This document shows positions 11,152 through 62,258 of a stretch of DNA of 64,000 nucleotides, piece by piece. The notes under the pieces were generated by a model, which worked only from the letters and a program-made list of their open reading frames with translations, did not search any database and was not told the DNA's origin. The stretch lies in assembly GCA_964569575.1 (NCBI GenBank), contig CAZMTL010000005.1, positions 9,053-73,052 of the forward strand, read 5' to 3'. Within the stretch, counting starts at the first letter, position 1. Every line of letters begins with the position of its first letter. The translations under genes were made by a program, and so were the position numbers. This stretch comes from an uncultured Gammaproteobacteria bacterium (GTDB taxonomy: Bacteria; Patescibacteriota; Patescibacteriia; UBA9934).

Positions 11152-12036
11152 ATGCAAGATTCGCAAGAACAACTACAGCCGGTGGAGTGGGTTGAGGTAA
11201 ATCCAAATCCTCAACCCAAGCCCAAGGCTCCAAAAGAACTTTCACCTGCGCTCCGTATTGTTATTTTTGTTGTTGGATTGATTGTGTGTTTGGGATTGGT
11301 TGCGCTATTGGTTGTTTCGATCGTGCGAACGGTTTTTGAAACAGATAATCGACAAACACAAGAGCAGATGCGCCAAGATGTTGCCGAGGCGGTGTTGATT
11401 TGTGATGACGCAGAAGATCGTGAGGGATGCGTGGAGCAGGTGAGTGTGCAGCTTGCGCAAGAACGAGGAGACGTTTCGTATTGTTTTTTGCTCGACCAGG
11501 GATTGCGAGACGACTGTGTTTTGAATGCTGCTATCTCGCTGAATGATCGCGGGATGTGTTCGCAGATGCAGGATGAAGCTCGTCGAGAACGGTGTGAAGA
11601 CGGATTATTTGTAAGTGCATTCGGATCGGATGCGCCGATCGAGATGTGTGATCGCTATCATGCTTCTGAACTGCGCGATAGTTGTATTGCTGTTCGAGTT
11701 CAGAATGCATTGCTTGCGGGCGAGTGTCCGGAACAAGCGACCGAAAGTGATTGCGCTGACTACGAGGTGATTCGCCGTGCGATTGCTGCTCGAGATGAAT
11801 CGATGTGTTTTGCGTTAGTGACGGATTCGTCGGAAGAAATGTGTCTTGGTCTTGTGAGTGAAGCTGTGTATCAATTTGAATTATCTGCCGAAGAAGGGAC
11901 TGTGGATACGGATGGGGATGGATTAACTGACGCCGAAGAGCGTTTACTTGGAACGAATCCGGCGTTGGTTGATACTGATGGTGATGGATTTAGTGATGGC
12001 GAAGAAGTTCGGAATGGCTTCGATCCTCTAAATTAG
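11152..12036 (+). CDS. Single-pass membrane protein with paired-Cys repeats and C-terminal thrombospondin type-3-like Ca-binding repeats (DTDGDGLTDAEE...DTDGDGFSDGEE)
   Basis: ORF track 11119..12036 trimmed to the ATG at 11152 (1 nt after the giant gene's stop); TM helix ALRIVIFVVGLIVCLGLVALLVVSIV; D-x-D-x-D-G-x-x-D-x-x-E motifs. Confidence 0.75.
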   Translation: MQDSQEQLQPVEWVEVNPNPQPKPKAPKELSPALRIVIFVVGLIVCLGLVALLVVSIVRTVFETDNRQTQEQMRQDVAEAVLICDDAEDREGCVEQVSVQLAQERGDVSYCFLLDQGLRDDCVLNAAISLNDRGMCSQMQDEARRERCEDGLFVSAFGSDAPIEMCDRYHASELRDSCIAVRVQNALLAGECPEQATESDCADYEVIRRAIAARDESMCFALVTDSSEEMCLGLVSEAVYQFELSAEEGTVDTDGDGLTDAEERLLGTNPALVDTDGDGFSDGEEVRNGFDPLN

Positions 12037-12080
12037 GTATCATATGAATAAATAGGATAGCTTCAATTACTTACGTTTCT

Positions 12081-12839
12081 ATGTTTGACGATCAACAATC
12101 ACAACCAACTCCAAAACCCCCAACGCCTCAGCAGCCTGTCGAGGATATGTTTGCTTCAACGGATGCTGTTGCTTCGGCTCCGGCGATGACCGCTTCGGTA
12201 GAGCAGGGCGGTGCCCCGATGAATTTACCAACCGCTCCTCCGGTAGAAGAACGTCAGATGCCTGTTCAGGCTCCAGTTACGCCTATGGCTCCTATGCCTG
12301 CGCCGGTTATGCCTTCGGACCGCATGAAGCCTCAGCCGACGATGGCGCCACCTTCGGCTGCTCGAACTCGACCTCCGGGTTCACGCGGGGGCGCGTTTAA
12401 AGTGATTTTTATTATTCTTGTTTCGCTCATTATTATTGCTATTGCTCTTTTCCTTGCCTACGCATTGGTGGTGGCGCCGAAGAGCGGTGACGTTGTGGAT
12501 TCGCTCGAGGATGATTCGTTGGTTGAAGATGATGTTGTCGTCGAGGACGAACCTGAGGTTCCGGTTATTGAAGAGGACCCAGTTGTAGTAGCGCCAATCG
12601 ATACAGACGGAGATGGATTAACAGATGCGGAAGAAGCTGCGGCGGGCACGTCGCCGTTGCGAGCGGATACGGATAGTGATGGATTGGGTGATCGAGAAGA
12701 AGTGAAAGTGTACGGAACAGACCCACTTGACGCAGATACGGATAAGGATGGGTATACGGATGGTGAAGAGGTGAGTTCGGGATATAACCCAAATGGACCA
12801 GGAAAGCTATTTGAAGTTCCGCAGGATATTAAAGAATAG
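12081..12839 (+). CDS. Pro-rich single-pass membrane protein with C-terminal TSP3-like Ca-binding repeats (paralog of the previous gene)
   Basis: TM helix FKVIFIILVSLIIIAIALFLAYALVVA; DTDGDGLTDAEE / DTDSDGLGDREE / DTDKDGYTDGEE. Confidence 0.75.
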   Translation: MFDDQQSQPTPKPPTPQQPVEDMFASTDAVASAPAMTASVEQGGAPMNLPTAPPVEERQMPVQAPVTPMAPMPAPVMPSDRMKPQPTMAPPSAARTRPPGSRGGAFKVIFIILVSLIIIAIALFLAYALVVAPKSGDVVDSLEDDSLVEDDVVVEDEPEVPVIEEDPVVVAPIDTDGDGLTDAEEAAAGTSPLRADTDSDGLGDREEVKVYGTDPLDADTDKDGYTDGEEVSSGYNPNGPGKLFEVPQDIKE

Positions 12840-12844
12840 TTGGT

Positions 12845-13813
12845 ATGGCACGTCGGAAGGAGGAGCGAAATTCGGCAAAGGTAACACAAAAGGAGTCAGA
12901 TTCTTTTGATTCTGTTGTATTTAAAGTGATGCCGAAGGAATTTTTAGGTGAAGGCGTTGAGCGTGTAGCGCCAGTTGAGGCGAAGTCTGTCCCGAAGCCT
13001 GTTCCTGCGCCTGTTGTTGTACCGCCCGCGCCAGTGCAGCCGACGATCACGAAGCCGGTTGCTATAAAGAAAAACAAGCGACGAGGTCCTGTTTTGTTAA
13101 TTGTATTCGGGCTACTCTTTCTGCTTGGACTTTCTGCGGCAGCGGTAGTATTACTTACTATTCTTTCGGAAGAAGATCCTGAGCCAATTGTGCCGGTTGT
13201 AGAAGACCCTGTTGTTATTCCTCCTGTGATTGAAGATCCTGTCGAGGAAGAGCCTTCGATTACGCAGGGAATCGATACGGATAGTGATGGTTTAACGGAT
13301 AGGGAAGAGGCATTGTACGGTACGGATGCACGCAATCCTGATACGGATGGTGATACATTTTTGGATGGAAATGAAGTGTTTCATCGGTATGATCCGCTTG
13401 GGTTTGCTCCATCTACGTTGCTTGATACGGGAAGTGTGGTTGAATATCGATCGGAAGTTGGCGGATACGCGCTTACCTATCCTCGCCAATGGAGCCTGAC
13501 GAGCACGGAAGGTGCTGGTATTACTTTGCGGGCGCAGACGGGTGCTACGATTGGGGTGATTGATTATGGTAAATCAGCCGAACAAGCGTTTTCTGCCTGG
13601 CTGGGTGAGGTCTATCCACAGATAGTATCGACGGACTTAAAGCAGGGGCTGACAAAGGCGGGATATGTTAGTTACACTACTGACGACCAGCGAACGGCTT
13701 TTCTGGTATTTGATTCGCGTGTTGTTGTGTTTACGTATACGCTTGGGAATAGTTTGGTGATAGACTATCTACAGACGTTCCAGATGATGGTGAATAGCTT
13801 CTTTTTAGAATAA
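12845..13813 (+). CDS. Single-pass membrane protein with central TSP3-like Ca-binding repeats and a C-terminal globular domain (third paralog)
   Basis: TM helix VLLIVFGLLFLLGLSAAAVVLLTIL; DTDSDGLTDREE...DTDGDTFLDGNE. Confidence 0.75.
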   Translation: MARRKEERNSAKVTQKESDSFDSVVFKVMPKEFLGEGVERVAPVEAKSVPKPVPAPVVVPPAPVQPTITKPVAIKKNKRRGPVLLIVFGLLFLLGLSAAAVVLLTILSEEDPEPIVPVVEDPVVIPPVIEDPVEEEPSITQGIDTDSDGLTDREEALYGTDARNPDTDGDTFLDGNEVFHRYDPLGFAPSTLLDTGSVVEYRSEVGGYALTYPRQWSLTSTEGAGITLRAQTGATIGVIDYGKSAEQAFSAWLGEVYPQIVSTDLKQGLTKAGYVSYTTDDQRTAFLVFDSRVVVFTYTLGNSLVIDYLQTFQMMVNSFFLE

Positions 13814-17934: not shown

Positions 17935-19353
17935 ATGGAGGCGAAGCGAACGAAAATTGTTTGCACTATTGGTCCGGCATCCAGCTCTGTTTCGATGCTT
18001 ACTCGAATGATCCGTCATGGGATGAATGTCGCTCGTTTGAATTTTTCGCACGGAACGCATGCCGAACATCAGCAGCTTTTGCGTCACATTCGCAAAGCGG
18101 CGAAGGATGTTGGGACTCATGTTGCTATTTTGCAAGATCTGCAAGGTCCGAAGATTCGTGTCGGTGTTCTTCCGGCCGAAGGAGTTGTGTTGCGAAAATC
18201 ACAGAAGATTCAGTTTACGACCGCTACGGACGTGTTTCATCCGGGGAAGCCGCTTCCAGTTACGTATAAGCAACTTCATCTTGATGTAAAAAAAGATCAT
18301 CGTATTTTGCTCGATGATGGGCGAATGGAGGTTGTGGTTCAGTCTGTTCGAGGGAAGGTGGTGACGGGGAAGGTGGTGTTTGGTGGAGTGTTGACGTCGC
18401 ATAAAGGCATGAACTTGCCCGATTCTACGGTTTCTGCCGCCGCGTTTACGGCAAAGGATCGCGAAGATGCATTGTTTGGATTGTCGCAAGAAGTTGATTG
18501 GGTAGCTCTTTCGTTCGTGACGAGCGCGAAGGTGGTGCGAGAAGTGCGACGGTTTTTGCAGGAACATGCTCGTATTGCGGGTGTTGCTGTTCCGAAAATT
18601 ATTGTCAAAATTGAGCGAAAGGAAGGTGTTCAGGATTTTGTAGATATTTTGAGTGAGGCGGATGGGATTATGATTGCGCGTGGTGATTTAGGTGTCGAAA
18701 TTCCGCTGGAAGAAGTGCCTGTGTTACAGAAGGAATTTGTCGAGATCTGTCGACAGGCAGGGAAGCCGGTGATTGTGGCGACGCAGATGTTGGATTCGAT
18801 GTCGCACAGTCCTCGACCAACGCGCGCCGAGGCTTCGGATGTCGCGAATGCGGTGATGGATCATGCGGATGCTCTAATGTTGTCACAGGAAACTGCTACG
18901 GGTGAATTCCCGGACGAAGCGGTTGAGGTGATGACTGCGATTATTTGCGAAGCAGAGAAATCGAGAATGGATGATATCGGGTTTTATCAAATTCATTCGA
19001 TGGAAGATGCTCCTACGGCAATTGCGCATACGGTTCATATATTGGCCGAAAATGATCAAATTGATGCGATTGTGACTTCGGCCGAATATGGACGTGCGGC
19101 TTTTTTGTTGAATGTCTTTCGACCAAATGTGCCTATTTTTATGGCGTGTCGTGATGATGTTTCGTTGCGTCAAAGTATTTTGCGAGCAGGTATTGAGCCA
19201 TTTGTTGAAAAATCTGATGCAGGTTCGTTTATTCAACGTAGTCGGAATGCATTGATTCGCAAAAAGAAAATCCGATCGACTGATCGGATCGCTTTTGTGG
19301 TTGTTGGAACGAATGCTTCACTATCCCTCACCATCGTGCCGTACGCTAGCTAG
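17935..19353 (+). CDS. pyk: Pyruvate kinase
   Basis: N-terminus MEAKRTKIVCTIGPAS and conserved PK motifs (MIARGDLGVEIP). Confidence 0.95.
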   Translation: MEAKRTKIVCTIGPASSSVSMLTRMIRHGMNVARLNFSHGTHAEHQQLLRHIRKAAKDVGTHVAILQDLQGPKIRVGVLPAEGVVLRKSQKIQFTTATDVFHPGKPLPVTYKQLHLDVKKDHRILLDDGRMEVVVQSVRGKVVTGKVVFGGVLTSHKGMNLPDSTVSAAAFTAKDREDALFGLSQEVDWVALSFVTSAKVVREVRRFLQEHARIAGVAVPKIIVKIERKEGVQDFVDILSEADGIMIARGDLGVEIPLEEVPVLQKEFVEICRQAGKPVIVATQMLDSMSHSPRPTRAEASDVANAVMDHADALMLSQETATGEFPDEAVEVMTAIICEAEKSRMDDIGFYQIHSMEDAPTAIAHTVHILAENDQIDAIVTSAEYGRAAFLLNVFRPNVPIFMACRDDVSLRQSILRAGIEPFVEKSDAGSFIQRSRNALIRKKKIRSTDRIAFVVVGTNASLSLTIVPYAS

Positions 19354-19664
19354 AATTGAAATCGTTCGGTCACAATTCTTGAGACGCTTTTTTCTAGTTG
19401 TGTAACTAGCCAGTTTTGAAATCCTTCAGAGCGTATAAATGCTTGCCCTGCGTAAAGTAGTACGGCTGTAATGACAAGTGTTCCGATTACGACGCCAACT
19501 GCGTTTAAAAGACCGCTCATGATCCCATTAGTAATTCGGTTTTTTCGATGTTTTCGTTGAGTGCGATCGATTAAATCATATAAATCTTCGACTTGCGTAT
19601 TGAGCGATTTTAGTTCGTCCAAAATTTCAGATGTTTTAGTTGTTGGTTTTGCTTGTGGAGGCAT
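19350..19664 (-). CDS. Hypothetical small membrane protein (coiled coil plus one TM helix)
   Basis: ORF only; TM segment GLLNAVGVVIGTLVITAVLLYAG; 4-nt overlap with the convergent pyk stop. Confidence 0.4.
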   Translation of the reverse strand: MPPQAKPTTKTSEILDELKSLNTQVEDLYDLIDRTQRKHRKNRITNGIMSGLLNAVGVVIGTLVITAVLLYAGQAFIRSEGFQNWLVTQLEKSVSRIVTERFQF

Positions 19665-20388
19665 ATTTTCGGAGTTGTTTACGTTTTTCTTTAAAGAGTG
19701 CTTTTGTCGTTTTTTCCCATTTTTCTGTTGCGGCTGTGAAGGCGATGGGCGAAAGTTGGTCTAGGTGTTGTTGAATGAACGCGCCTGTTTCTTTCGGGTA
19801 GAGATTGCCGCATTCTCGCAGTGTCCAGCCGACGGCTTTTTGTACGTATACGTCGGGGTCGTTGAGAAGATTTTGTACGAGTGGGAGAATTTTTCTTGAT
19901 TTTGTTGGAGATGTTTTTCTGCTATTACTGTAATACAGCAGGCTAGTAAGAGAGAGTCTACGAAGCCAGGGATTTTTTGAGCGGTTCCAGAGGTGAAGGG
20001 TTGGTTCTATTTTTTCTGGATGATGTTCGTGAAGATGTGCGTAAATTCCACTCAATCCGTCTGAATGTGCCCAGTTGTCGATTTTCGCTGACCATTTCTT
20101 TAGCATCGGCCAGTCCTGAATACGTACGCGTTTTTGTTTTGGTTCAAAATAGAGAATTGCGATTGTGAGTACTTCGTGATTTGTTGATTCGTGCCACAGT
20201 GCGTCGACTCGCTTTTTTATGTTTTGCTGTTCTTGCTGATAAAACTCGTTTGCGATTTTTCGTACCGATGGAATGGAGCAGCCCAAGCTTTTGAAGTGCG
20301 ATTTAATATAGCCTTCATCGTGCTTCGCGCGATCTTTGTTTGCGTGTTGTTTTAGTTGTTTGAGCAGCGTTCGTTCGTCGGTGTTCAT
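19636..20388 (-). CDS. DNA alkylation repair enzyme family protein (AlkD-like HEAT-repeat glycosylase fold)
   Basis: ORF 19636..20718 trimmed to MNTDERTLL at 20388 (ATGA overlap with the upstream gene's stop); W/K-rich HEAT-like repeats, WLRRLSLTSLL, VQKAVGWTLRE. Confidence 0.65.
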   Translation of the reverse strand: MNTDERTLLKQLKQHANKDRAKHDEGYIKSHFKSLGCSIPSVRKIANEFYQQEQQNIKKRVDALWHESTNHEVLTIAILYFEPKQKRVRIQDWPMLKKWSAKIDNWAHSDGLSGIYAHLHEHHPEKIEPTLHLWNRSKNPWLRRLSLTSLLYYSNSRKTSPTKSRKILPLVQNLLNDPDVYVQKAVGWTLRECGNLYPKETGAFIQQHLDQLSPIAFTAATEKWEKTTKALFKEKRKQLRKYASTSKTNN

Positions 20389-20825
20389 AGGTTTGCGAAA
20401 TACTGGCTGATCAGTACAAGTGCTGCCCACCATCCGATCAGTGAAATGATAAAGCTTACGAACGTTGCCCGTTGCAGTGATTGCGGAAGAAGTTGTGTTT
20501 GCTTGCCTGCGCGTTCGCGTTGTAGAAGAATGGGGCTGACGTAGAATGTGAGAAATGAGCCGTTCGCGATAAGGATGATTGCTGTGACTGCGAGTGTGAG
20601 CTGGAGGGTTGGTTGGGAGTTTTGAAATGTGATGATGCCACCTGCGATAGCAAGAAATGTCCCAAGCCAAATAAGGGGTTTGGTGATTTTGTGTGATCGC
20701 GTTGTCGCTTCGGTCCAATATCCAGACGTGCGACCTAGAAATGCGTGAACATCAATAACGGTGACAGCCCCGTGTCCGATCACGAATCCTGCAAGTAGAA
20801 GAAAAATGCCGATAAAGTCAGTCAT
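20385..20825 (-). CDS. Hypothetical 4-TM membrane protein
   Basis: Four hydrophobic helices; start/stop coupling with the downstream AlkD-like gene. Confidence 0.6.
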   Translation of the reverse strand: MTDFIGIFLLLAGFVIGHGAVTVIDVHAFLGRTSGYWTEATTRSHKITKPLIWLGTFLAIAGGIITFQNSQPTLQLTLAVTAIILIANGSFLTFYVSPILLQRERAGKQTQLLPQSLQRATFVSFIISLIGWWAALVLISQYFANL

Positions 20826-20861
20826 GCTAGTAGTATAGCATTTCTTCGCATTAAACGATTG

Positions 20862-20888
20862 CGCCCCGGACCTTGTGGGTCCGGGGCG
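20862..20888 (-). terminator. GC-rich hairpin (11-bp stem CGCCCCGGACC/GGTCCGGGGCG) downstream of the high-GC gene 20894..21181
   Basis: Perfect inverted repeat read from the sequence. Confidence 0.5.
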
Positions 20889-20893
20889 AGAGG

Positions 20894-21181
20894 CTACTTG
20901 ATGATCAGGTCGATCTGGGTAGCTGGGATGTAGACTTCGATGGTCTCTTCCTTGCAGTGCACGGTGAGGTGATCAGGGTTGTGGCGATGGATGGTGACGA
21001 TGGCTTGTTCTCCTTTGCAGGGCTGGAACTCAGCCTTGTCGATGCTCTCCATGTAGTTGACTACTCCGGGCGTATTTCGAATCTGCTCGATGCGATCCGA
21101 TTCACTTTGTCCGCAGCGCCAGAGGGCGGCACAGCAGAGTGTCAGTACGAGGCTTCCGTTGATCAGGGCGCGACGCTTCAA
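20894..21181 (-). CDS. Small secreted Cys-containing hypothetical protein in a high-GC island (TTG start, GGAG SD)
   Basis: Signal-peptide-like N-terminus; GC3 about 75% by hand count, against about 40% for flanking genes; GGAG 7 nt upstream of the TTG. Confidence 0.55.
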   Translation of the reverse strand: MKRRALINGSLVLTLCCAALWRCGQSESDRIEQIRNTPGVVNYMESIDKAEFQPCKGEQAIVTIHRHNPDHLTVHCKEETIEVYIPATQIDLIIK

Positions 21182-21319
21182 GCTTGCTCCGGTCCTTCGC
21201 GTGCTCGCAAAGAGACATTTGATTTAACCACTTTGTTGGCTAAAAGTCAATTATTCTGCGGTTTTGTTGACGGTTGTAGATAAAGTAGGGGAAGATGAAT
21301 GGGTACAAAGGAGGTTCGG

Positions 21320-21781
21320 ATGTCTGTTCGTGTGATTAAGGCGCTTGTTCCATCGGTTCGCTTCATTGATCGTCCCGAGGTGCGGTTATTGCTTGAACGG
21401 GTGTTCATGGCTCGGCGGTTTGTTTGGGACGGCGTTTCCATGCGGCTCGACGCACGTGGCGAGCTGTATACTGTCGACGTTGACGAGGTTGATGTTCATG
21501 CGAAGGCTTGGAACACTGTCGAGATTCCAGGAACGCATGTGTATCGACCTGAGAAGGTGTACGACCATGTTACGTTTCATTTGATTCCCCGGGGTGGTCG
21601 ACGGGATTATTGCAAGGTCACGTACGTTGAAGTTGTCGCTCAGCTTCCGTCTAGCGTGCTGCGTTCGCATCCGGATTATCGATTGGTTTGCGAAGTTACG
21701 CCCGAAGACAACGTGCTGATCTCGTGTGGCGGTCGATTGTTTCATCGCGCGATTACGACGGTATTTCGTGCGACGATCTAG
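21320..21781 (+). CDS. Hypothetical protein (154 aa) in a high-GC island
   Basis: ORF track 21299..21781 trimmed to the ATG at 21320, which has a strong AAGGAGG SD 5 nt upstream. Confidence 0.55.
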   Translation: MSVRVIKALVPSVRFIDRPEVRLLLERVFMARRFVWDGVSMRLDARGELYTVDVDEVDVHAKAWNTVEIPGTHVYRPEKVYDHVTFHLIPRGGRRDYCKVTYVEVVAQLPSSVLRSHPDYRLVCEVTPEDNVLISCGGRLFHRAITTVFRATI

Positions 21782-21796
21782 GCCGCAGAACGCATA

Positions 21797-21821
21797 CGCC
21801 CCGCGAGTTGATCGCGGGGCG
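21797..21821 (+). terminator. GC-rich hairpin (10-bp stem CGCCCCGCGA/TCGCGGGGCG, 5-nt loop) then CTTCTATT
   Basis: Perfect inverted repeat 16 nt after the stop of 21320..21781. Confidence 0.55.
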
Positions 21822-21827
21822 CTTCTA

Positions 21828-22370
21828 TTAGAACGTAAAGTTGAATTGTGCGAGCGGGTCGATGAATGTCACGTTTGTTGGTGCTTCGAACATCGAATCG
21901 TTTACATTTTCTCGAGAGCAATTTACATCAACGTCAGGTTGGTAGTTTGTACCGCTTCCGTTGTTTGATGAATCTGTTGTTGTTCCTTCGCTTTCATAGT
22001 CTTGCAAGGCGTCACTCAATCCGCAGAGTTTCATTCCTTCACTTCCGCCTTCTTCCCATGTGTAGGTACATTCTCCGTCCGAGATCACTCGGCCAGTTCT
22101 TCCATCAACATCCGCTTCAATAGCGAATTTGTCGTTTTTGATGTAGCTGGTACCTGTTCCGTATTCCCCGGACCAGGTGCATTTGAGTGATTCGCCACGT
22201 TGTAGGGCGGCTGCGAAAGAACCGGTGAATGTAGAATCGTTGTTTGATTCTACCGATGTTTTGGTGTCGGTTGTTTCCATTCCGTTGTTATTGACGGTGT
22301 TATTGGTTGCACAACCAGCTCCTAGAAGGAGAATGACGGCCAAGGCGGTGAAGGTGAGTGATGTTTTCAT
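21828..22370 (-). CDS. Putative lipoprotein (signal peptide with LLGAGC lipobox-like cysteine), Asn/Thr/Gly-rich
   Basis: MKTSLTFTALAVILLLGAGCATNN...; normal (low) GC. Confidence 0.65.
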   Translation of the reverse strand: MKTSLTFTALAVILLLGAGCATNNTVNNNGMETTDTKTSVESNNDSTFTGSFAAALQRGESLKCTWSGEYGTGTSYIKNDKFAIEADVDGRTGRVISDGECTYTWEEGGSEGMKLCGLSDALQDYESEGTTTDSSNNGSGTNYQPDVDVNCSRENVNDSMFEAPTNVTFIDPLAQFNFTF

Positions 22371-22381
22371 AGGGTCAATTT

Positions 22382-24370
22382 CTATTTTTCAAACTTGTTA
22401 AACAGGGTTGGGTCGATGTCCATTACTTTTGTGGCCCAGTCATTTCCGAAGCGTTGTCGAGCAACTTCTTCGGATGGAATATATTCTAACGCTTCACGCA
22501 CGTTTCCGGCAATAACTAGATACGTTTCTGGTTTGCTTTGAATTTTTACGAGCGTTCCTGCTTTTGGTAGCACGGGCATTCCGAGCGGGATCGTTGGAAG
22601 TGTTGCGTCGGTAACGATTTTGATATTGTCGAAGTTTGCGAATCGAGTGAAGTAAATGGCTTCGTTCATGAATGGCCGACGCGTTCCGTTTTCGATTAGG
22701 TAGACGGTGTCGTAGTTTTGGCCTCGAATCAACTGTGCGCCCGTGATGTCGGTGATTAGCTCGATGTTTCCTGTGAACGGTGATGGTCCTGTTGTAGGTG
22801 ATTCGGTTGATTCCTCTTCGTCCACTTCTTCTTCGATCACTTCGTTTTCACATTCAAACGACAGTTGTTCGCTTGCACTTGTTGAGGTGATTGATCCGCT
22901 TGTGTTTCGCAGGGCGAGGTAGACCGTTGTAGTGGATTGTTTGATCTGAAAATTCCACGACTTTGTGATACTTTCTGCCGTTAATTCTTGCCATGTCGCA
23001 TTTGAAAAATCTGCATTGTTCGAAAGAATGTATTCAGTTGCCCCGGCTGATTGAATGTTTACTTCACCTGTCAGGCTTCCAGAATCGCACGAATAGGCGA
23101 GGGAGTGGATTGAGAGAGAGGCTGTCGTGATCGGTGTTGCACTTGTTTCGGAAGACGAACTTCGTTTTACCGAGAAATTCCAGGTGGTTTCGTTGTTGAT
23201 TCCTGGGAATATTCCACCGCCGTCAACAGCGAATGCTCCGCTGTCGATTTGAATGTAGACATCTTCGCCGTTTGGTAATTGGCCTGGCTCGATGGTGATG
23301 GTTTCGGTTCCTGATCCGCTTACGCGATTGCTTTCAACATCGATTGTTGAAAAAAGTACGTCGTTGTTTGTGCGGTAGATGTAGATGTTTCCGGTTCCTG
23401 TGATGACGTCCTGGTCGAAGGTGATTTCTAGATCTGCACTTCGTAGTACGTCAACTTCGTTATCTGTTGGAGAGAGAGTTACGATTTCTGGTGCTTCGAA
23501 TGCGGTGAGGGAGAATTCTGCTCCAGCAGTTTCGGGCATATCTCCGTCTGCTCCGAACTCGACGACGTATCCAGGAAGCATACTTGTAGCACAGCCGAGG
23601 TCATTCCATTCGCCGCTTTGTAATCCACCCGAGAGGAACTGCGCGCAGTCTTCGCTGCTACTGCTGTCGTTTGGTTCGTTTTCGTTCCAGTTTTCGTATT
23701 CCCCAGGCACAACAGCTCCAAATTGATCACCTACCCAGAATAGGTCACCTGTTTCTGGTCCGGTCACCCAGCGCCATTCGTCTTCCACGGCGGCGTCGCT
23801 TGCACCCATCCATCCAGCTCCGCCAAGTCGAGCGGCGACGAAGTCATTTTCTTCCTGTGAAGTGATGGTGGTGAGATATCCTGTGGCTCCATAGCGTTCA
23901 AGTCCTGCCGCGGCGATCTGAGCATTGTTCCAGTTGATGTTTCCTGGCACGGAAATATATTCGTACAAATGTCCATTTCCGGAAAAGAATACTTCGCCTT
24001 CTTCTACGAGCGATACTTCTAATGTGTCGGCGCCGGTTGAGTCGGCTGTGTAGAGAAGTGTTGCGAGTGCTGCGTTTACATCTTCGACATCGCCTGAAAA
24101 GTAGAGTTCTGCTCCAGTTTCTGGACCGGTAAACGTGAGTCCGGTTGTTGTTGTCATTTCGAGCGTTCCGTTGCTTACGAGTAATTTTACCGGAATGACT
24201 CCTACGGCATTAAGAACTTCGATGCCTGTTAAAAGGATAGGTAGGTCGACTGTTGCTGTTTGGTTGTCGTCGCCGATGACTTCTAATTCACCGTCAGCAT
24301 AAGTTGGCTGAATGTGCAGCAGGGAAGTTGCAAGCACGCTGATTAATAACGCGCCAAGAATCTTTTTCAT
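22382..24370 (-). CDS. Secreted C-type lectin domain protein (CTLD with EPN and WND motifs) plus a C-terminal domain shared with the 1679-aa protein
   Basis: ORF 22382..24397 trimmed to MKKILGALLISVLATSLLHIQPTYA (signal peptide); CTLD motifs WNNAQ...C, ITSQEENDFV, GWMGASD...EDEWRWV, WNENEPN, EDCAQF, GEWNDLGC. Confidence 0.85.
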   Translation of the reverse strand: MKKILGALLISVLATSLLHIQPTYADGELEVIGDDNQTATVDLPILLTGIEVLNAVGVIPVKLLVSNGTLEMTTTTGLTFTGPETGAELYFSGDVEDVNAALATLLYTADSTGADTLEVSLVEEGEVFFSGNGHLYEYISVPGNINWNNAQIAAAGLERYGATGYLTTITSQEENDFVAARLGGAGWMGASDAAVEDEWRWVTGPETGDLFWVGDQFGAVVPGEYENWNENEPNDSSSSEDCAQFLSGGLQSGEWNDLGCATSMLPGYVVEFGADGDMPETAGAEFSLTAFEAPEIVTLSPTDNEVDVLRSADLEITFDQDVITGTGNIYIYRTNNDVLFSTIDVESNRVSGSGTETITIEPGQLPNGEDVYIQIDSGAFAVDGGGIFPGINNETTWNFSVKRSSSSETSATPITTASLSIHSLAYSCDSGSLTGEVNIQSAGATEYILSNNADFSNATWQELTAESITKSWNFQIKQSTTTVYLALRNTSGSITSTSASEQLSFECENEVIEEEVDEEESTESPTTGPSPFTGNIELITDITGAQLIRGQNYDTVYLIENGTRRPFMNEAIYFTRFANFDNIKIVTDATLPTIPLGMPVLPKAGTLVKIQSKPETYLVIAGNVREALEYIPSEEVARQRFGNDWATKVMDIDPTLFNKFEK

Positions 24371-24480
24371 ACGAAAAATAAAGTAATATTGGCTCAATTA
24401 TAACACGGACGCACGGATTATTTTTTGTTTGGAAGTGTGGGTGTTGATAGGTTTTGTGGGGAGGGTTGAAAATGAAAAAA

Positions 24481-24505
24481 CCACAGCCGAAGCTGTGATT
24501 TTTTC
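24481..24505. terminator. Bidirectional terminator CACAGC-CGAA-GCTGTG flanked by A/T runs, just 3' of tRNA-Asp
   Basis: aaaaaaccacagccgaagctgtgattttttc. Confidence 0.6.
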
Positions 24506-24581
24506 TGGCGGGCTGGACGGGACTCGAACCCGCAACTTCCGCCGTGACAGGGCGGTGCTCTAACCATTGAACTACCAGCCC
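24506..24581 (-). tRNA. tRNA-Asp (anticodon GUC), CCA encoded
   Basis: Minus-strand read GGGCUGG-UA-GUUC-AAUGGUUA-GAGC-A-CCGCC-CU-GUC-AC-GGCGG-AAGUU-GCGGG-UUCGAGU-CCCGU-CCAGCCC-G-CCA folds as a cloverleaf. Confidence 0.9.
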
Positions 24582-24668
24582 ATTTGTGTGACACAGACGC
24601 GTGTCAGTAAATGGTGGCGAAATGGTATCAAATCATCTTTTTTTTGGCAAGAAACGGTTATAAACAAG

Positions 24669-24703
24669 AGAGCCCCCTTTCAGCGAGTGCTGTAGGGGGC
24701 TCG
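24669..24703 (-). terminator. GC-rich hairpin (9-bp stem GAGCCCCCT/AGGGGGCTC) 3' of the island gene 24729..25964
   Basis: Perfect inverted repeat with a 16-nt loop. Confidence 0.5.
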
Positions 24704-24728
24704 AGAGAACTGGCGCAGTGGCGCTGGT

Positions 24729-25964
24729 TCAGAAGGTGGTGAACGTCGGGCAGTTGGCGCCGGACGGGAAGCAGGCCTTGGTGAGAGCGATGTTGTCGCT
24801 TCCGTTCACCCAGGTGCAGCTTCCGTCATCGTTGCGGTTGAACGTGCCGTGGAGCTGGTAGACCGTGCCGGTCTTCAGTGCCGTTTCGTTTGGAACCGTG
24901 ATGGTGAGCGAGTCGTGCACAATGATTGCGGACAGGTCCTCGACGGTGCACTTGACCGGTTCGCTGTTCGCTGTCGCCGTATCTGACTGCGGCATCGTTC
25001 CCGTTTGCGTCATTGCGATGGTTGTCGGTTGACTGGTTGTTGCGACCGTCGGTTCCTGCGGTGGCATGGTGACAGTGCGCTTGGGCATGATTCCTTCAAT
25101 AGGAAGCTCTGCCCGGACTACGCGTTGCGCAGTTGGCCGGATTTCGCTTTCGCCCACGTTCCAGTTCGAGATCATCACCACCGTCATGGTGAGAGCCAGA
25201 ATTCCGCTCATCGTGAAGAGTGCCGCGAGTACGCTTGCGATTCCGATCGTTGGGATGAACCAGCCGCGCAGTTGCGTTCGCTCGGTTTCTTCTTCGTCCT
25301 CTTCCGTTTCCTGAGAGGCCCTGAAGAACTCGTCCTCGAAGTCCTTGGTCGTCAGTGGCTCTCCTCGTGCGTCGGTCGGTGCCGTGTTTGTAGTAGCGCC
25401 TTCCTTGGCTTTTTCGAACCACGGAGTTTCGGTGACTTCGTTGAACGGGTCGCCGGTGTCTTCGGCGGGCTTCTTCTTGAAGAGGGTTGTCGCAGGCACG
25501 CCCTCTTCTACCACCAGCCCTGCGAGAGGGTCTCCCTCGTCGAAGCTGTCGAGATCGCCTGGAGGGAGATCGGGCAGGCCTTCATCGTTGAAGGTAGTGG
25601 CAGCGTGGTCGCGAAGACGCATGATGCCAGTATCCCCTTCTTTGAACGTGAGGTAGCCGTCCTCGGGAACGATGGTGTCGGCGCTGTCCCTCGTGCGTCC
25701 ATTGCCGGAGCTGAGTACACGGGTGGCTGCACCTGGGTGGGTAGAGAGCTCCGCAGCCGCTTCTTTGGCCGGAGCCGTTGTTGCCGCTTCCGCTGCCTTG
25801 GCTTCCCCCGCTGTCTTTGCCGCTGCGCGCTCTTTCATGTTCTTGAGGTGTTCTTCTGCGGTCGGTCGCTCTCCTTCGATTTCTTTGCAGGCCGCGACGA
25901 GATTCTTGAAGTCCTCGCAGGACTGGTCGATGCGGGCCGAGCTGTCTGGCGTGTCCTTACCCAT
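24729..25964 (-). CDS. Hypothetical single-pass membrane protein (acidic, Ala/Glu-rich cytoplasmic N-domain; extracytoplasmic Cys-containing C-domain) in a high-GC island
   Basis: ORF 24729..26267 trimmed to the ATG at 25964 with a GGAG SD; GC3 about 85% over the first 13 codons; TM helix GWFIPTIGIASVLAALFTMSGILALTMTVV. Confidence 0.6.
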   Translation of the reverse strand: MGKDTPDSSARIDQSCEDFKNLVAACKEIEGERPTAEEHLKNMKERAAAKTAGEAKAAEAATTAPAKEAAAELSTHPGAATRVLSSGNGRTRDSADTIVPEDGYLTFKEGDTGIMRLRDHAATTFNDEGLPDLPPGDLDSFDEGDPLAGLVVEEGVPATTLFKKKPAEDTGDPFNEVTETPWFEKAKEGATTNTAPTDARGEPLTTKDFEDEFFRASQETEEDEEETERTQLRGWFIPTIGIASVLAALFTMSGILALTMTVVMISNWNVGESEIRPTAQRVVRAELPIEGIMPKRTVTMPPQEPTVATTSQPTTIAMTQTGTMPQSDTATANSEPVKCTVEDLSAIIVHDSLTITVPNETALKTGTVYQLHGTFNRNDDGSCTWVNGSDNIALTKACFPSGANCPTFTTF

Positions 25965-26124
25965 GCTGTCTCCAGATGCTGATTGGTGAAAGATCGAGGT
26001 TGAATATTTCAAACATAGATGTCTGAACTGACGGATAGTACAGGAAATACCAAGAATGTCAATAAATACAAAGCGATCCCCAGCGCCGAAGCGGTGGGGA
26101 TCTCGATTTCGCCTGGCGCTGCGC

Positions 26125-26718
26125 TTATCGCGCGGCCAGGCAGGTGTTGGGCATGTCGCCCGTCTCGCCCGGGGTGGGCTGACGAGCGACATTGCACCAA
26201 CGCGCGGGGCACTGGTCGGTGGCCCCGAAGATGCGCGTGAAGCCCTCGTGGGCCAGCGCACCTTCACCGATGGTCTTGAGGTCGAGGCAGTTGGCCTCGA
26301 CCGCCTTCTTGATCGTGGATGGCTTGCCGTCCACGGTGGGGGTGAAGTGCATCTCGCCGTTGGCGGAGCACTCCACGTCGCGGAGGCTCCAAGCCTGTCC
26401 GCTCCAGGTGAAGGCCACGACGCCGTTGACGGGCATCGTGGCGGGGGCGAGGCAGCTGATGAGCTGCTCGTTCTCGTTCGGCGTCACCGTCTCCCCGACC
26501 ACCTGGGTGGTGGTCGGGGAGACGGCAGGGGGCCACATCATCCACGCAGCGCTCGTGAGAGCGAGGAGGATGAGGCCGATGCCCAGCAGGCTGAGGAGGC
26601 TGATGCCCCCGCACCCGATGGTCGTCGGCCACCACGAGCGCGTCGCGCGTCGCGGGGGCGGCGTGGGGCGACCCGGGAAGGGGGCGTCCGTGGGGTCCTG
26701 GTTGGGTTCGATCGCCAT
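26125..26718 (-). CDS. Hypothetical single-pass membrane protein (Pro-rich cytoplasmic N-terminus, TM helix, Cys-containing ectodomain) in a high-GC island
   Basis: ATG at 26718 with a GGAG SD; high GC3; a perfect TTGACA -35 at 26812-26817 on the minus strand. Confidence 0.6.
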   Translation of the reverse strand: MAIEPNQDPTDAPFPGRPTPPPRRATRSWWPTTIGCGGISLLSLLGIGLILLALTSAAWMMWPPAVSPTTTQVVGETVTPNENEQLISCLAPATMPVNGVVAFTWSGQAWSLRDVECSANGEMHFTPTVDGKPSTIKKAVEANCLDLKTIGEGALAHEGFTRIFGATDQCPARWCNVARQPTPGETGDMPNTCLAAR

Positions 26719-26852
26719 GGATTACTCCGTGCCAGCTCTTGCTGGCGGGTGTGAGGTAAGGGGGCCGACTTACTGAAGTCGACTGATTAAACTATCACAA
26801 AATAGTCTTTTTGTCAAGGAATATATAGTTATTTCTCCTAAAACCAAAAACC

Positions 26853-26878
26853 AGCCGGATTGGCTGGTTTTTGTGAAA
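26853..26878. terminator. Bidirectional terminator CCAGCC-GGAT-TGGCTGG with A/T flanks, 3' of rplT
   Basis: aaaaaccagccggattggctggtttttgtg. Confidence 0.65.
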
Positions 26879-26882
26879 TAAG

Positions 26883-27230
26883 CTATTTCTTTGCTGTTTC
26901 TACGATCTTTTTGAAGACGTTTGGATAGTGTTCTGCAATTTGAGCTAGAACTTTTCGGTCTAGTTCGATTCCTGCGATCTTTAATCCGTTGATCAACTGT
27001 GAGTAGGTTGTTCCGTTTGCACGGGCTCCTGCGTTGATCTTTACGCTCCAAAGACGTCGGAAGACGCGCTTTTTTGCTCGGCGATCTCGGAAGGCGTTTA
27101 CTCCAGCTTTTAGGAAGGCTGGACGTGCCAATCGAATTTTATTTTTTCGGCCCCATCGGTACCCTTTTACTTTCGCAAATAGGCTGTTTCGTCGTTTTAC
27201 GTGTTGGACCCCTCGTTTTACTCGTGCCAT
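26883..27230 (-). CDS. rplT: 50S ribosomal protein L20
   Basis: MARVKRGVQHVKRRNSLFAKVKGYRWGRKN... Confidence 0.95.
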   Translation of the reverse strand: MARVKRGVQHVKRRNSLFAKVKGYRWGRKNKIRLARPAFLKAGVNAFRDRRAKKRVFRRLWSVKINAGARANGTTYSQLINGLKIAGIELDRKVLAQIAEHYPNVFKKIVETAKK

Positions 27231-37873: not shown

Positions 37874-40800
37874 TTAAAGGAGTTTTCGAAGAGACTGGAT
37901 TACGAGCGTTGCTGCGCCTGTGCTTGCTGTTTCTTGAATTGTTTCGATCGCTGCTCGTGTGAATTCTTTCAATCGATTGAAGAATTCGCTTGTGATTCCT
38001 CTATCTTCTTCGCTCGAAGACCGTTCGTTGAGTAGTTCTCGTTTTCGCGCTTCCGAAAACTCTATTCCGTCATTGAGAATGTCTTCTTCCGACATGTATG
38101 GAGCTTCGAAAACGAATTGATTTGTCAGCGTTGGGTTTAGGTCCAGTACATAGTCCGCCCAATTTTCACCTGCGATAAATGTTGCCAGCTCTTCTGTTTG
38201 CACCCAGCGTAGCTTTCCTGTCGTTGGATCGTTTGGATCTTGATGGAAGTAGTACACTTCATCCCGACTTTGGAATTTTACAAATGCTACGTGTTCACGT
38301 GGAAGCATTGGTTCTTGTATTGAGAATTCGCGTAATGTTTCGTCTGAAACCCATTTCACGTTTTCGAATGACCGTGCATGTGTAAAATAGCTGGTTTCGT
38401 CTACGAATGGTCGACGCGAAAGATCGCGGTCGATGCAGTAGACGGTTTCGAAGTTTTTGGAACGAATGTAGTCGCCTGGGAAGATTTTATCAACCGGTAC
38501 CAAGTCGCCCGACGTTGGCGAAACTCCGAGTTGGTAGCGAGCGCGATCGGCGGATGAAAGAGGAGTCATGAAGATGCTTTCGCATCCGAGAACAGGCTCT
38601 GTCTCAGGTTCGGAATTGTCACATTGTGTTGCTTCGTCAATATTGATATCGAAGACGAATGTTCCTGTTTGTTGCGCTCCGTTTCGGAATCGGATATAGA
38701 GCGTGTGTAGCCCGTCGTTGTTTGTTCCTACGAATGACGTTGTCATCGTTTGAGTGGTGAGCGCTTCTGTTCCTTGGTCTGGAATGTAGGATTGCCAAAG
38801 CGCACCAGCGAAGTCGATATTTTCTGCAATGATGTAGTCACTAATTTGAGATCCGCTCAATTGCAGAAGGATGGTGTTTGTTGGCGAGCATACCGGAAGG
38901 CTGACAGAGATATTTGTAGGAGGGACTGGTTCTGGACCACCGCTTCCGCCACCACCGCCACCTCCTCCTGAGTCGTTGTCGATGTTTACAATGGCGACGT
39001 CCTCGCCGTCTACAGAGTCGTAGATTGGGGCAGTTGTTTCTGCAACGTCAATGACTACTTGTGCGAGATAGGCAATGTTTCCGTCGACGATTGCGTCGTC
39101 TTGACCGGTTACAGTAACCGTTTGAGGAATGTCCCAGTTTTCTGAGTCGAACCAAAGTTCGCTACCACTCGTGATGGTTCCTTCAGTTAAGTCACTCGAA
39201 CTAATATCGAAATGGACCTCCGTTCCAATAGCTGGTCGAGCGGTGATTTCTACGGTAAATGTTCCTGTTACTCCTGCTTCGGTTGTGTTGTTCGAAATTG
39301 TCGATACGATTATTCCAGAAACGTCGTCGTCAATGTTAGTGACTGCTACTTGCTCGCTTGCGATCACATCGTATTCGTCTGCAAGTGTAAGATCTTGATC
39401 GATGGTGACATCTATATTGTAATCAATGTCTCCGTCATCGAAGTCGTCATCTTGTCCAGTAATGGTTACTGTTTGCGGGATGGCCCAGTCTTCTGTTGTG
39501 AATGTGAGTATGGAACCAGTTGTTACAATTCCTTCGTCTGTATTGTCGGACGCTGTATTGATGATGACTGTGTTTGTCGGTTCGGTTAAGAGGACAACGG
39601 TAAACGTAGCTGTTATGCCAGCTTCGGTCGTATCATTTGATATTTCTGAAACAAGAATTCCGGGTTCATTATCAGTTTCTGCGTTGAAGAGAAGGCTATC
39701 TACTTGGGGATTTTCGTGTGTGTCGTTTGAGAAGAAGGTTGCTGAACTATAAACGTCATCCACGTTGGTATCCCATCCGTTTACAGCGGTTAAATCTGCT
39801 TCGTCGAGTAGTTCGAGGGCGGTGCCGGTCATTCGGTTGTTCGGCCCGTCTGCAATGGATTCCGAAATGGCGGTTGCTGCTTCGCTTACGCTTGCGACTG
39901 CCCATGTTCCGCCGTTTTCTCGGTAATACCAGGTTCCGTCAACGTTTCCGTGAACGAGCGTATCGTTTGAGGCGATGGGTCGTAGGTCTGCGTTGATTCG
40001 ATACGTAGCTCCTTCATCGAACGAAAGGGCGTAGTAGATGGACTGGTTATTGAGGGTTTCTGCTACATCGATGTCACTGAGCGTGAGAAGGGCGCTTGTG
40101 TCGGCTGCTGCTGTTAGTTCGGTGACAATGGTGTAGTACGTGTTTTCTTCTACGCCGTAAACTACTTCGTGTAGGAAGTTTTCAGATCCTTCTTCGAATA
40201 TTTCTTCTGCATCGAGTGACCACAGGTCTCCTTGGCTGTCGATGGCCGCTGCGTTTATTGAACTACTTTCTGTTGCGATGTCTTCGAGGAAGTTGTCGCT
40301 TTCTAAGTCGTATCTGGACCAATTAGCTATTCCTAGGTAGAGAATATTTCTTGTGGGTTCGATAACCATGTCCTGAACTTGTCCGGTTGGTTTGTAGAAC
40401 TCTACGGCGAGTGTCGCGCTATCGATGGCGATCAGGAAATTATTTGCAATCAGGATGCGTTCATTCAGGTTGTCGTAGAGCATGGTTGTAGGTGTTCCTT
40501 GCGATAGACTTGGTGTGGAGTGCAATTGTACGCTGCTGTTTTCGAAGGTACCGTTGTAGTACGCGCCTGTTGCGGCGTTTATTTTTACTGCAAGATCTTT
40601 TACTGAGGTGGTGATGACCGCCCAGATTGCATCTTCGTTTGAATCATAAGCAAGATCAAGTATTTGGTCATTTTCTTCCAAAATACTGCCGTTGATCGTG
40701 TAGGAGCTGTTAGCAATGTTGCCGTTCGCAAATGCGCCCGTGACTGCGTTTATTTTTACAATGTTTGGAATGCCTTGGTCGTCTTCGTCCGCGACCCAAA

Positions 40801-60953: not shown

Positions 60954-61613
60954 TTACGCTTCCGCGATCTCGGCTTTGCCGGGCGGGAGCTTGAGGTAGA
61001 AGCTGTTGTTGCTCAGATCGACTTCGTCGCCGAGCGTGAGCTTCTCGTTCTGCCCACGGTTGGTCTTCTTGGTCTCGATGACGCACTGCGACTTCGCTTC
61101 GCGCTTCACCCGCCACTCCTCTCGGAGTTCGTTCGTGAAGTGTCTTCCGAGGCCGACTCCGAAGTACCCGGTCCAGTACTCGAAGTATTCCAGTTCGGTG
61201 ATGAGCTCCTTGCGCTGCCTCGCCGTCTGGACCAGGAGGTGGTGGATCCGCGTCACGCTTTCGCGTACGGTCTCCACCTGACCGGATTGTGTGAAGGTGA
61301 GCGGGGCGCAATCGCCCTTGCTCGCCTTCCGCACGGCAGCGGCGGTGCGCTCGAGCAGGCAGTTGATGCCGCCGTGCTGGTCGAGCGCGGAGCGCTCGTA
61401 GCTGCAGAGCGACGCCTGAAGGAAAGCGATCTTGCGATCGGCCTCCTTCCAGTCTTGCTCGAAGAGCTCTTCGAGCTCGTTGAGCCAGCACTTCCCTTCG
61501 AGCGAGTTGAATCGGCTGAAGGTGTTTCGGGTGAGGTCGCGCACTCGCGCCAGCTCCTCGAAGTTGAGGTTGTAGTGGTGGCCGGCGATGCGGGCGTTCT
61601 GGTTCTGGGACAT
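60954..61613 (-). CDS. Hypothetical cytoplasmic protein (219 aa) in a high-GC island
   Basis: High GC3, strong GGAGG SD 5 nt upstream, diverse amino-acid composition; alternative overlapping frames judged to be GC artefacts. Confidence 0.55.
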   Translation of the reverse strand: MSQNQNARIAGHHYNLNFEELARVRDLTRNTFSRFNSLEGKCWLNELEELFEQDWKEADRKIAFLQASLCSYERSALDQHGGINCLLERTAAAVRKASKGDCAPLTFTQSGQVETVRESVTRIHHLLVQTARQRKELITELEYFEYWTGYFGVGLGRHFTNELREEWRVKREAKSQCVIETKKTNRGQNEKLTLGDEVDLSNNSFYLKLPPGKAEIAEA

Positions 61614-61705: not shown

Positions 61706-62258
61706 GTTTACCATCTTGCTGGAGAAGCGCCCGTTCCGGGGACCGGTGAAGTAAGTGATGACCGAGGTCATGTAACTTCGTGATGTTCGGGTATGTGCAT
61801 CGAGTCAGGCGAACCCGAGTCATTGCACTTGAACATCGTGACTTCAAGAGTCAGTAAAATTCCTCCTCTTAAAAGCGCATTCTCTCCTCCAGAAAGATGG
61901 TGTCCATCGTTAAATGAACGTTGTACAATAGCAGATTTTTGGGGTTTTGTCAAGGCAAGATGCGATAAATTTGGCTAATTTTGGATGTGAATTTAGGGTT
62001 ATGTTTTTTGGGGTTTGGGTGGATTTTGAGATAGGAAGGCGGGAGGTTGAGCGCCTTTTTTCGTCATCCCGGACTTAATCTCCGGCGCTAAAGGCCGCGC
62101 AGGCTGGGATCCATCGACTCTCGCAAGCGCTCCCCCTCCTTTTCAAGGAGGAGTTAGGGGTGGTTACGCGTGTCACATCAAATAAAAAAAAACCGCGACT
62201 CCGTCCCTACACCCTCTCCTCCTACCCCCTAATCCCACTGTGCTATCATTCATTTTGT

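Follow-up and report, generated by a model that had tools for sequence, protein, structure and literature searches.

The subject of this analysis is a short region, rich in guanine plus cytosine (GC), in a stretch of 64,000 nucleotides from contig CAZMTL010000005.1, referred to throughout as the window. The region lies between rplT, which encodes ribosomal protein L20, and a gene for tRNA-Asp, and contains two genes, A and B, whose products are predicted to be single-pass membrane proteins. The rplT-tRNA-Asp interval is a conserved variable slot in related genomes, and it recurs as a variable locus for what appear to be surface proteins. The feature is best described as a replacement-type variable surface locus, with the surface role a predicted one, or as a compositional islet; its unusual property is a GC deviation that recurs between genomes and is always upward. 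To our knowledge, no conserved slot of Patescibacteria has been reported before in which GC deviates recurrently and only upward. An earlier note on the window had instead read genes A and B as DNA recently acquired from a high-GC donor, for example an actinobacterial host. The features of the region are listed below; the gene A promoter-like site with its leader, and the terminator-like hairpin of gene B, were read from the sequence.

24506..24581, minus strand: tRNA-Asp(GTC), identified with ARAGORN and Rfam; the single tRNA of the window
24650..24622, minus strand: promoter-like site of tRNA-Asp, between gene B and the tRNA, which is then followed by its own terminator
24670..24702, minus strand: terminator-like hairpin of gene B (GAGCCCCCT, a 15-nt loop, AGGGGGCTC, then a T-rich tail)
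24729..25964, minus strand: gene B, a 411-amino-acid single-pass membrane protein; an orphan, identical to a public protein
25965..26062, minus strand: promoter-like site and leader of gene B, with 10/12 consensus matches
26062..26102, minus strand: terminator-like hairpin of gene A, with arms 26102..26091 and 26086..26075 and a T-rich tail (inverted repeat I9)
26125..26718, minus strand: gene A, a 197-amino-acid single-pass membrane protein; an orphan, characterized by GC, hydropathy and AlphaFold2
26487..26525, minus strand: intragenic hairpin in gene A, a perfect 17 bp with a 5-nt loop, just past the segment that encodes the transmembrane (TM) helix
26719..26817, minus strand: promoter-like site and leader of gene A
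26873..26845, minus strand: terminator hairpin of rplT (repeat I6)
26883..27230, minus strand: rplT, the other conserved flank of the slot

Along the minus strand the order is rplT, its terminator, the gene A unit, the gene B unit, the tRNA promoter-like site, tRNA-Asp and a terminator. The neighbours of the island are rplT, rpmI, rpsB, tsf, GAPDH and tRNA-Asp. In the gene A unit, a -35 element, TTGACA (26817..26812), is followed after a 17-nt spacer by TAGTTT (26794..26789), and the GC-rich leader contains small hairpins and a GGAG at 26728..26725. This promoter stretch is probably native, because it is similar to the post-rplT promoter of the low-GC relative L002. At the other end of the unit, the two arms of the terminator-like hairpin are 12 nt long and 92% complementary. 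The gene B unit opens with TTGACA (26062..26057), a 16-nt spacer and TACTAT (26040..26035), and continues with an AT-rich leader that carries a GGAG at 25973..25970. Its terminator-like hairpin (24702..24670) was missed by the scan tool because the loop exceeds 8 nt. The promoter-like sites of both units are AT-rich and of sigma-70 type. The TTGACA upstream of gene A, this hairpin and the leader hairpins, all pointed out in the earlier note, were found, as was tRNA-Asp at 24506-24581 on the minus strand with the island on its 5' side.

The two proteins share a general plan. The product of gene A begins with a tail of 31 residues rich in Pro and Arg, which is followed by a TM helix at about residues 32-60 (maximum hydropathy 2.37) and an ectodomain of 140 residues with 6 Cys. 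The product of gene B has a more elaborate N-terminal part, in which a helical hairpin (residues 8-57) precedes about 150 disordered, acidic residues with a net charge of -27; these are followed by a TM helix (about 234-262), then by a linker rich in Thr and Pro, and last by a small C-terminal domain that contains 4 Cys. Thus, as the earlier note had it, each protein contains one strong hydrophobic segment and a Cys-containing C-terminal part. Single-sequence AlphaFold2 models have a predicted local distance difference test score (pLDDT) of about 44 overall for both proteins; in A the TM helix alone is confident (pLDDT 76-83) and in B the TM helix and the N-terminal helical hairpin alone. The positive-inside rule for gene A, together with the Cys-rich C-terminal parts of both proteins, would place the N-terminus inside the cell and a Cys-stabilized C-terminal domain outside. 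From architecture alone, A and B may have a role in cell-surface interaction or surface identity, such as recognition of a host, a partner or a phage.

The description of A and B as paralogous-looking has weak support. A single alignment of 51 residues covers the juxtamembrane and TM segment (E = 0.002, for one pair), and includes the motif RSWWPTTIG in A and RGWFIPTIG in B. A similar juxtamembrane motif is also present in the slot proteins of two relatives, L001 and L003. Leave-one-out profile tests were mixed: B and the L003 protein came out on top among non-training open reading frames (ORFs; E about 0.03), and A and the L001 protein did not.

The coding strand and frame of gene A differ from those in the public record. 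The NCBI record, an 83-kb contig, calls an antisense ORF of 232 amino acids at 26056..26754 on the plus strand and does not call gene A. The GC content of this ORF at its first, second and third codon positions (GC1/2/3) is 0.85/0.59/0.60 and its product is rich in Gly, Arg and Ala, a pattern typical of GC-rich DNA read in the wrong frame. On the minus strand, GC3 exceeds GC1 and GC2 as expected, a ribosome-binding site precedes the ATG, a promoter and a terminator frame the gene, and the product contains a clear TM segment. Gene A is encoded on the minus strand. The intragenic hairpin has a folding energy of -45 kcal/mol (z = -5.6), and a hairpin of this kind is expected by chance about 1.5e-5 times per window; no counterpart was found in the slot genes of relatives.

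The composition anomaly of positions 24582-26760 is genuine. GC amounts to 60.9% here, as compared with 46.5% in the rest of the window (z about 6), and 1150 other 2179-bp windows gave a mean of 0.466, a standard deviation of 0.023 and a maximum of 0.534. Gene A has a GC of 0.695 with GC1/2/3 = 0.60/0.58/0.91, and gene B a GC of 0.598 with GC1/2/3 = 0.59/0.50/0.70. Relative to the native ORFs of the window (n = 44; GC3 0.436 +/- 0.055, maximum 0.55), these GC3 values correspond to z = 8.6 and z = 4.8, respectively. Tetranucleotide usage, once normalized for base composition, makes the island a mild outlier only (z about 2.4). Both genes have Shine-Dalgarno (SD) sites, GGAG, at distances of 6 nt (gene A) and 5 nt (gene B) upstream of the ATG; among the native ORFs, GGAG or GAGG occurs near any candidate start in only 8/47. 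The earlier note was right that the island stands out in composition (60.9% GC against a maximum of 53.4%) and that strong GGAG sites set both genes apart from most native ones. Its estimates of about 68% GC and of third positions almost all G or C hold for gene A (69.5%; GC3 0.91), but gene B reaches only about 60% and GC3 0.70. Of the composition checks that it proposed, GC and GC3 gave strong outliers, but normalized tetranucleotides only the mild one.

The edges of the anomaly are sharp. GC returns to 0.42-0.48 at either end of the island and also in the 161 nt that separate A from B, where the promoter and leader stretch of gene B (25965..26062) dips to 0.42-0.43. On the gene A side GC climbs only inside the leader and not before it, and rplT keeps its native composition up to the stop codon (GC3 0.30 over the last 30 codons). 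The sharp drop in the spacer fits a pair of discrete cassettes.

The slot is best understood by comparison with relatives. The best matches of the window L20 in genome and metagenome collections are to Uhrbacteria, Magasanikbacteria and other Patescibacteria, with no more than 72% identity; by this measure the source genome is an Uhrbacteria-like member of the Patescibacteria, and these matches do not support a Saccharibacteria-type episymbiont. Among the 30 relatives scanned, 13 have tRNA-Asp 0.13-3.1 kb downstream of rplT on the same strand. The closest relative by flanking genes is L003 (839-kb contig CAZKGL010000001.1, 64% GC), which has 54-72% amino-acid identity with the window over four syntenic genes and 91% DNA identity over tRNA-Asp and its terminator. 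Its layout is the same: rplT, a terminator, a promoter, a leader of ~60 nt, GGAGG and a gene for a single-pass, Cys-containing membrane protein. In all of the Uhrbacteria-like relatives examined, the post-rplT genes encode single-pass, Pro-rich or Cys-containing membrane proteins or lipoproteins that belong to no Pfam family.

Slot contents are unrelated in sequence between genomes and yet all of one general type, single-pass membrane proteins or lipoproteins. A family with a conserved N-domain is found there in at least 10 genomes, and the window, L001 and L003 have unrelated genes instead. The architecture of the family is an N-terminal domain of about 115 amino acids, a Pro-rich linker, a TM helix and a short tail that often ends in a Cys pair; its members are in L002b, L004, L005, L009-L011, L016, L025, L026 and L085. 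An hmmsearch with the family profile recovered 13 distinct members among the fetched loci and none in the window, L001 or L003, and hhalign gave A and B a probability of at most 4% against the N-domain profile. The absence of the N-domain family from these three loci points to replacement of slot contents, not just to divergence. Several relatives have a pseudouridine-synthase gene in the slot; the window has none. Gene B resembles the family in its succession of N-domain, linker, TM helix, Thr/Pro-rich segment and C-terminal Cys pair, and both A and B resemble it in genomic position and in a GC above the genome mean; they differ from it in that neither matches the family profile, and the family itself has no Pfam model. 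As side observations, L001 (CAYJQH010000002.1) has an rplT 68% identical to that of the window and a post-rplT slot layout in common with it, and both L001 and L003 are titled 'uncultured Gammaproteobacteria bacterium', labels that look wrong.

The GC excess is a recurrent property of the slot, as its genes are GC-richer than their own genome in every relative examined. In L001, whose genome has about 46-49% GC, two tandem slot genes (10584-12030) have GC3 values of 0.79 and 0.90 and sharp edges; one encodes a Cys-rich lipoprotein, the other a tail-anchored protein whose Pro-rich N-domain is disordered. A slot gene found in two separate assemblies from Hainich aquifer groundwater (L004 5721-6563 and L075 4081-4923) has a GC of 0.72 and a GC3 of 0.83 in a genome of 48% GC; it is a clear member of the slot family, and the encoded protein has an extremely high content of Ala, Gly and Pro. 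Even in L003, the slot gene (10494-11111) has a GC3 of 0.99, as compared with 0.83-0.89 for native genes. Slot-family members in other low-GC genomes (43-46% GC) exceed their genomes by +0.05 to +0.14, and over all relatives other than L001, L003 and L004/L075 the excess is +0.04 to +0.14. With the order of rplT, variable genes and tRNA-Asp kept in relatives, and their post-rplT genes GC-enriched too, the idea of a one-off event in this genome falls away.

A GC3-rich island is not unique in the window either. An orphan gene C, at 61613..60954, has a GC3 of 0.86, and its features are the following.

60954..61613, minus strand: gene C, a 219-amino-acid soluble protein; an orphan with GC 0.618 and GC1/2/3 = 0.60/0.39/0.86
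61953..61948, minus strand: TTGACA of the gene C promoter; the unit also has a ~300-nt leader, an AGGAGG site 5-6 nt upstream of the ATG and a terminator
61653-61709, minus strand: hairpin in the gene C leader, with 26-nt arms that are 85% complementary, about 40 nt before the start codon

The anatomy of this cassette (promoter, SD site, ORF and terminator) is that of A and B. Its leader hairpin may be regulatory; Rfam at the gathering threshold gave nothing at this hairpin. The Logan contig L071 (run SRR15237806) is identical to the window over 60665-62650 and spans both junctions of gene C.

The reading that we favour, with a probability of roughly 0.5, is that A and B are genuine, lineage-specific genes for envelope proteins, which sit in a small flexible locus of the replacement type and have come as cassettes from a GC-rich pool. 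Here, conserved sequence at both ends, namely rplT followed by its terminator and a promoter at one end and tRNA-Asp at the opposite one, would frame one or two fast-evolving genes in cassettes that are unrelated in sequence. Those of the window would have been brought in by recombination from a GC-rich gene pool, most plausibly one formed by high-GC genomes of this radiation or by mobile elements of theirs. Expression is predicted to be gene by gene, each as its own unit of promoter, SD site, ORF and terminator, and the products would be anchored in the membrane, exposed, and involved in surface interaction or identity. Donors within the radiation are made plausible by three observations: the native genes of L003 have GC1/2/3 values equal to those of genes A and C; a preference for the leucine codon CTC over CTG is common to the native genes of the window, L003, L001, L013 and genes A, B and C; and in a published survey of 125 genomes of aquifer Patescibacteria, the majority of gene transfers were among Patescibacteria (PMC12455944). 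By codon-usage likelihood, a high-GC donor from the Patescibacteria (L003) and a locus from the Acidobacteria could not be told apart.

Five points weigh against this reading. The deviation of slot genes is always upward, even in L003 with its 64% GC, which is not what a simple two-way exchange between lineages predicts. In L004, the GC-rich slot gene is a member of a family known so far only from low-GC genomes, and this points at least as much to a gain of GC in place as to import. For genes A, B and C, the searches gave no donor sequence. The role proposed for A and B has no support from homology or from a confident structure (pLDDT 44 for both). Finally, the junction on the rplT side has no independent confirmation, as the Logan contig L152 (26820-28928; run SRR15237806) ends 2 nt from the -35 element of gene A.

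The first two of these points lead to the main alternative, in which no foreign donor is involved. Here, fast-evolving native slot genes would have been enriched in GC in place by a process specific to the locus, for which GC-biased gene conversion at a recombination hotspot and selection on synonymous sites are candidates. Such a process would bring synonymous sites near saturation and shift the amino acids toward Ala, Gly, Pro and Thr. It would account for a post-rplT excess that is universal and upward across relatives, including the GC3 of 0.99 in L003, for the L004 gene (GC 0.72 and GC3 0.83 in a family otherwise at GC 0.49-0.57 in low-GC genomes), for the lack of donor homologues in any search and for a CTC-over-CTG preference that is the same as in native genes. 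The mouse gene Fxy provides a precedent, as it underwent a gene-scale burst of GC3 and accelerated protein change at a recombination hotspot. The likeness to Fxy lies in a sharp, gene-limited rise of GC3 to saturation with a rapid shift to amino acids of GC-rich codons; the difference is that Fxy is eukaryotic and its process meiotic, and that a recombination hotspot or biased gene conversion at the slot is hypothetical. Against enrichment in place, a regional bias should blur the edges, and yet GC is 42-48% in the 161-nt spacer and at the outer edges, though promoter function may constrain the spacer. In addition, gene C, at an unrelated locus, is just as GC3-rich (0.86) with a GC2 like that of native genes, SD sites mark A, B and C and few native genes, and the effects of biased gene conversion reported in bacteria amount to a few percent of GC3, not to a rise from 0.44 to 0.91. 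On balance, enrichment in place is possible but rather unlikely.

A broader version of this idea is that the post-rplT slot, and perhaps other envelope genes of the subclade, are under a locus-specific and strongly GC-biased diversification that leaves no recognizable homology between relatives; this we consider distinctly unlikely. Such diversification would drive GC3 to 0.8-1.0 regardless of genome GC, and biased gene conversion may be one mechanism. If true, it would be a prokaryotic counterpart of the gene-scale GC bursts at eukaryotic recombination hotspots.

Searches for relatives of A, B and C covered large collections. Gene A had no match among 5.8 billion clusters searched by a word index, among 1.84 billion representatives searched in full with phmmer or in JGI metagenome contigs, and genes B and C matched only themselves in the 5.8-billion-cluster search. 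A and B had no significant match in Pfam, PHROGs, PADLOC or NCBIfam, and tblastn found no match for them in phages (with INPHARED among the sets) or plasmids. Scans of IMG/VR gave nothing for gene A and no meaningful match for A, B or C; the one match to gene B was an artefact, an 8-residue motif (NDDGSCTW) inside a repeat of a phage protein with 35% GC. Similarly, a PDB match (7ona, E = 1.5e-4) was discarded as the sum of five 4-bit matches to the identical blades of a designed repeat protein, and PDB sequences otherwise gave nothing useful. Among the fetched loci, neither A, B and C nor the GC-rich slot genes of L001 had a homologue. As no donor homologue is present in the large databases searched, it is from composition alone that we infer gene transfer.

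These results bear most directly on the model of the earlier note, in which DNA of an unrelated donor with high GC, for instance an actinobacterial host, recently inserted as an island at tRNA-Asp. The high GC and GC3, the Pro-rich N-tail of gene A and the SD sites are in its favour, and Patescibacteria probably take up foreign DNA. The outliers in GC, GC3 and codon usage, with their SD sites, do fit DNA of another compositional regime, so that this half of the acquisition claim survives, but its actinobacterial half does not: there is no evidence for such a source in the sequences compared. A BLASTP-type check for best matches in Actinobacteria returned no homologue of any origin in any collection searched, despite the dense sampling of that group. 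The slot is variable and GC-rich in relatives from other habitats too, and the preference for CTC over CTG is that of this clade, unlike the non-Patescibacteria high-GC loci sampled, in which CTG mostly equals or exceeds CTC. The organism, moreover, is Uhrbacteria-like, and we know of no host for that group. We hold this model to be scarcely probable.

The arrangement around tRNA-Asp likewise argues against insertion at the tRNA. The island lies on the 5' side of tRNA-Asp, beyond the tRNA promoter, and does not abut the tRNA 3' end. No integrase is evident, since only two ORFs lie between rplT and tRNA-Asp and neither has a significant match in Pfam, NCBIfam or PHROGs, and no att-like direct repeat derived from the tRNA was found in 24300-27100 with a seed of 8, including at 26.7-26.9 kb, where the earlier note had proposed to look for one. 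A tRNA-targeted integrative island was rejected on these grounds. The likeness to integrase-mediated tRNA islands is confined to the nearby tRNA, the deviant GC and genes without known function; the island differs from them in its position, in the tRNA promoter that stands between, and in having neither integrase nor tRNA 3'-end repeat. No suitable repeats of the diversity-generating retroelement type that involve the island were found in the whole 64-kb window, which was not scanned ORF by ORF for reverse transcriptase.

Delivery by phages offers another route. Morons of lambdoid phages are single genes with their own promoter and terminator and with a composition unlike that of their surroundings, and A and B are likewise autonomous units, as predicted from their sequence, of deviant composition. 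In this case, moron-like cassettes would have been delivered by phages or mobile elements of Patescibacteria, with the element itself now gone. Genes A, B and C each have a predicted promoter, SD site and terminator as well as a deviant composition, their orphan status is typical of phage gene pools, and phages of the candidate phyla radiation are poorly sampled. Against this, A and B differ from morons in lying outside any prophage, among core housekeeping genes: no phage genes lie nearby, the flanks are rplT, rpsB, tsf and tRNA-Asp, and PHROGs, INPHARED and IMG/VR gave no meaningful matches. Moron-like delivery is improbable.

An artefact of assembly also has to be weighed. In a chimera, the assembler would have moved at tRNA-Asp to a co-occurring, high-GC relative and back near rplT, so that the segment would stem from another genome. 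Both flanks are conserved and common to related genomes, high-GC relatives with an equal layout of the locus exist (L003), and no Logan contig that carries A or B was found. In addition, L152, an independent contig, stops at 26820, at the junction; this break could reflect a drop of coverage in GC-rich DNA or a graph branch from alternative slot alleles. Exact-protein look-ups for independent contigs across the island (with A, B, L20, L35 and the lectin protein) found none, and the rpsB contig stops at the junction. A chimera would need two precise switches, however, and rplT has its native GC3 (0.30) up to the stop codon, followed by a promoter that resembles that of the low-GC L002. When the window and L003 are compared, the stretch with the rplT terminator and the promoter shows no conservation, so that an assembler would have no k-mers in common at which to switch. 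Logan contigs reach a length of only about 2 kb and break inside native genes too. Assembly chimerism of the island is unlikely, because L001 and L004/L075, which are independent assemblies, likewise combine a low-GC genome with GC-rich genes after rplT, and because both junctions of gene C were confirmed by an independent assembler; the specific scenario of two switches is very improbable.

The favoured reading, that of a replacement-type locus supplied with cassettes from a GC-rich pool, has known counterparts. Replacement-type flexible genomic islands have unrelated contents at an equivalent position and encode exposed products, as in the surface-identity loci of Alteromonas, Haloquadratum and Salinibacter (PMC4898812). 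The slot is like these in its equal position between conserved flanks, with a tRNA at one border, and in contents that are dissimilar in sequence, deviant in composition and predicted to specify envelope or exposed products; their functional equivalence is an assumption drawn from these features. It differs in being tiny (1-2 genes, 0.7-2.3 kb) and in encoding single membrane proteins in place of glycan-synthesis clusters, in having been compared between genera or families and not between strains, and in a deviation that is consistently to higher GC, with GC3 up to 0.9-1.0.

Patescibacteria rely on contact with other cells, and their surface proteins are almost entirely uncharacterized. A conserved slot with rapidly replaced envelope genes would help to find candidate proteins for host or phage recognition, and would allow strain-level surface variation to be tracked in metagenomes. 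The consistent upward deviation, which ordinary islands do not have, could reveal a hidden GC-rich pool common to the radiation, or else a mechanism that drives GC locally. Mis-annotation of the kind seen at gene A, where the antisense ORF was called, is likely elsewhere too for GC-rich orphan genes in mid-GC metagenome-assembled genomes.

Further GC-rich genes were noted outside the slot. L001 contains a second GC-rich block at 184-2698 with secreted or lipoprotein ORFs (GC3 0.81-0.93), and GC3-rich (0.68-0.87) secreted or membrane ORFs occur in the mid-GC Patescibacteria loci L074 (149-1483), L089 (5400-6233) and L020 (8182-9941). GC-rich envelope genes may be common in this group of Patescibacteria.

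Beyond tRNA-Asp, six genes at 19350-24397 have no counterpart in any fetched relative locus, and so the variable zone is larger than the GC-rich island, at about 7.5 kb from the end of a conserved block at 19353 to rplT. They include genes for a DNA-alkylation-repair protein and for a secreted protein of 662-671 amino acids with C-type lectin and Big_5 domains. Elsewhere in the window, a 1679-amino-acid protein (37874-42913, minus strand) has no Pfam match at E <= 0.001, and a 3114-amino-acid protein (1806-11150) is built of repeated Cys-rich modules (CGNxxxExGExCDDGN-like; DNA repeat families D1 and D2). Three tandem genes at 11119-13813 encode repeated DTDGDGLxDxEE motifs, which resemble thrombospondin type 3 calcium-binding repeats.

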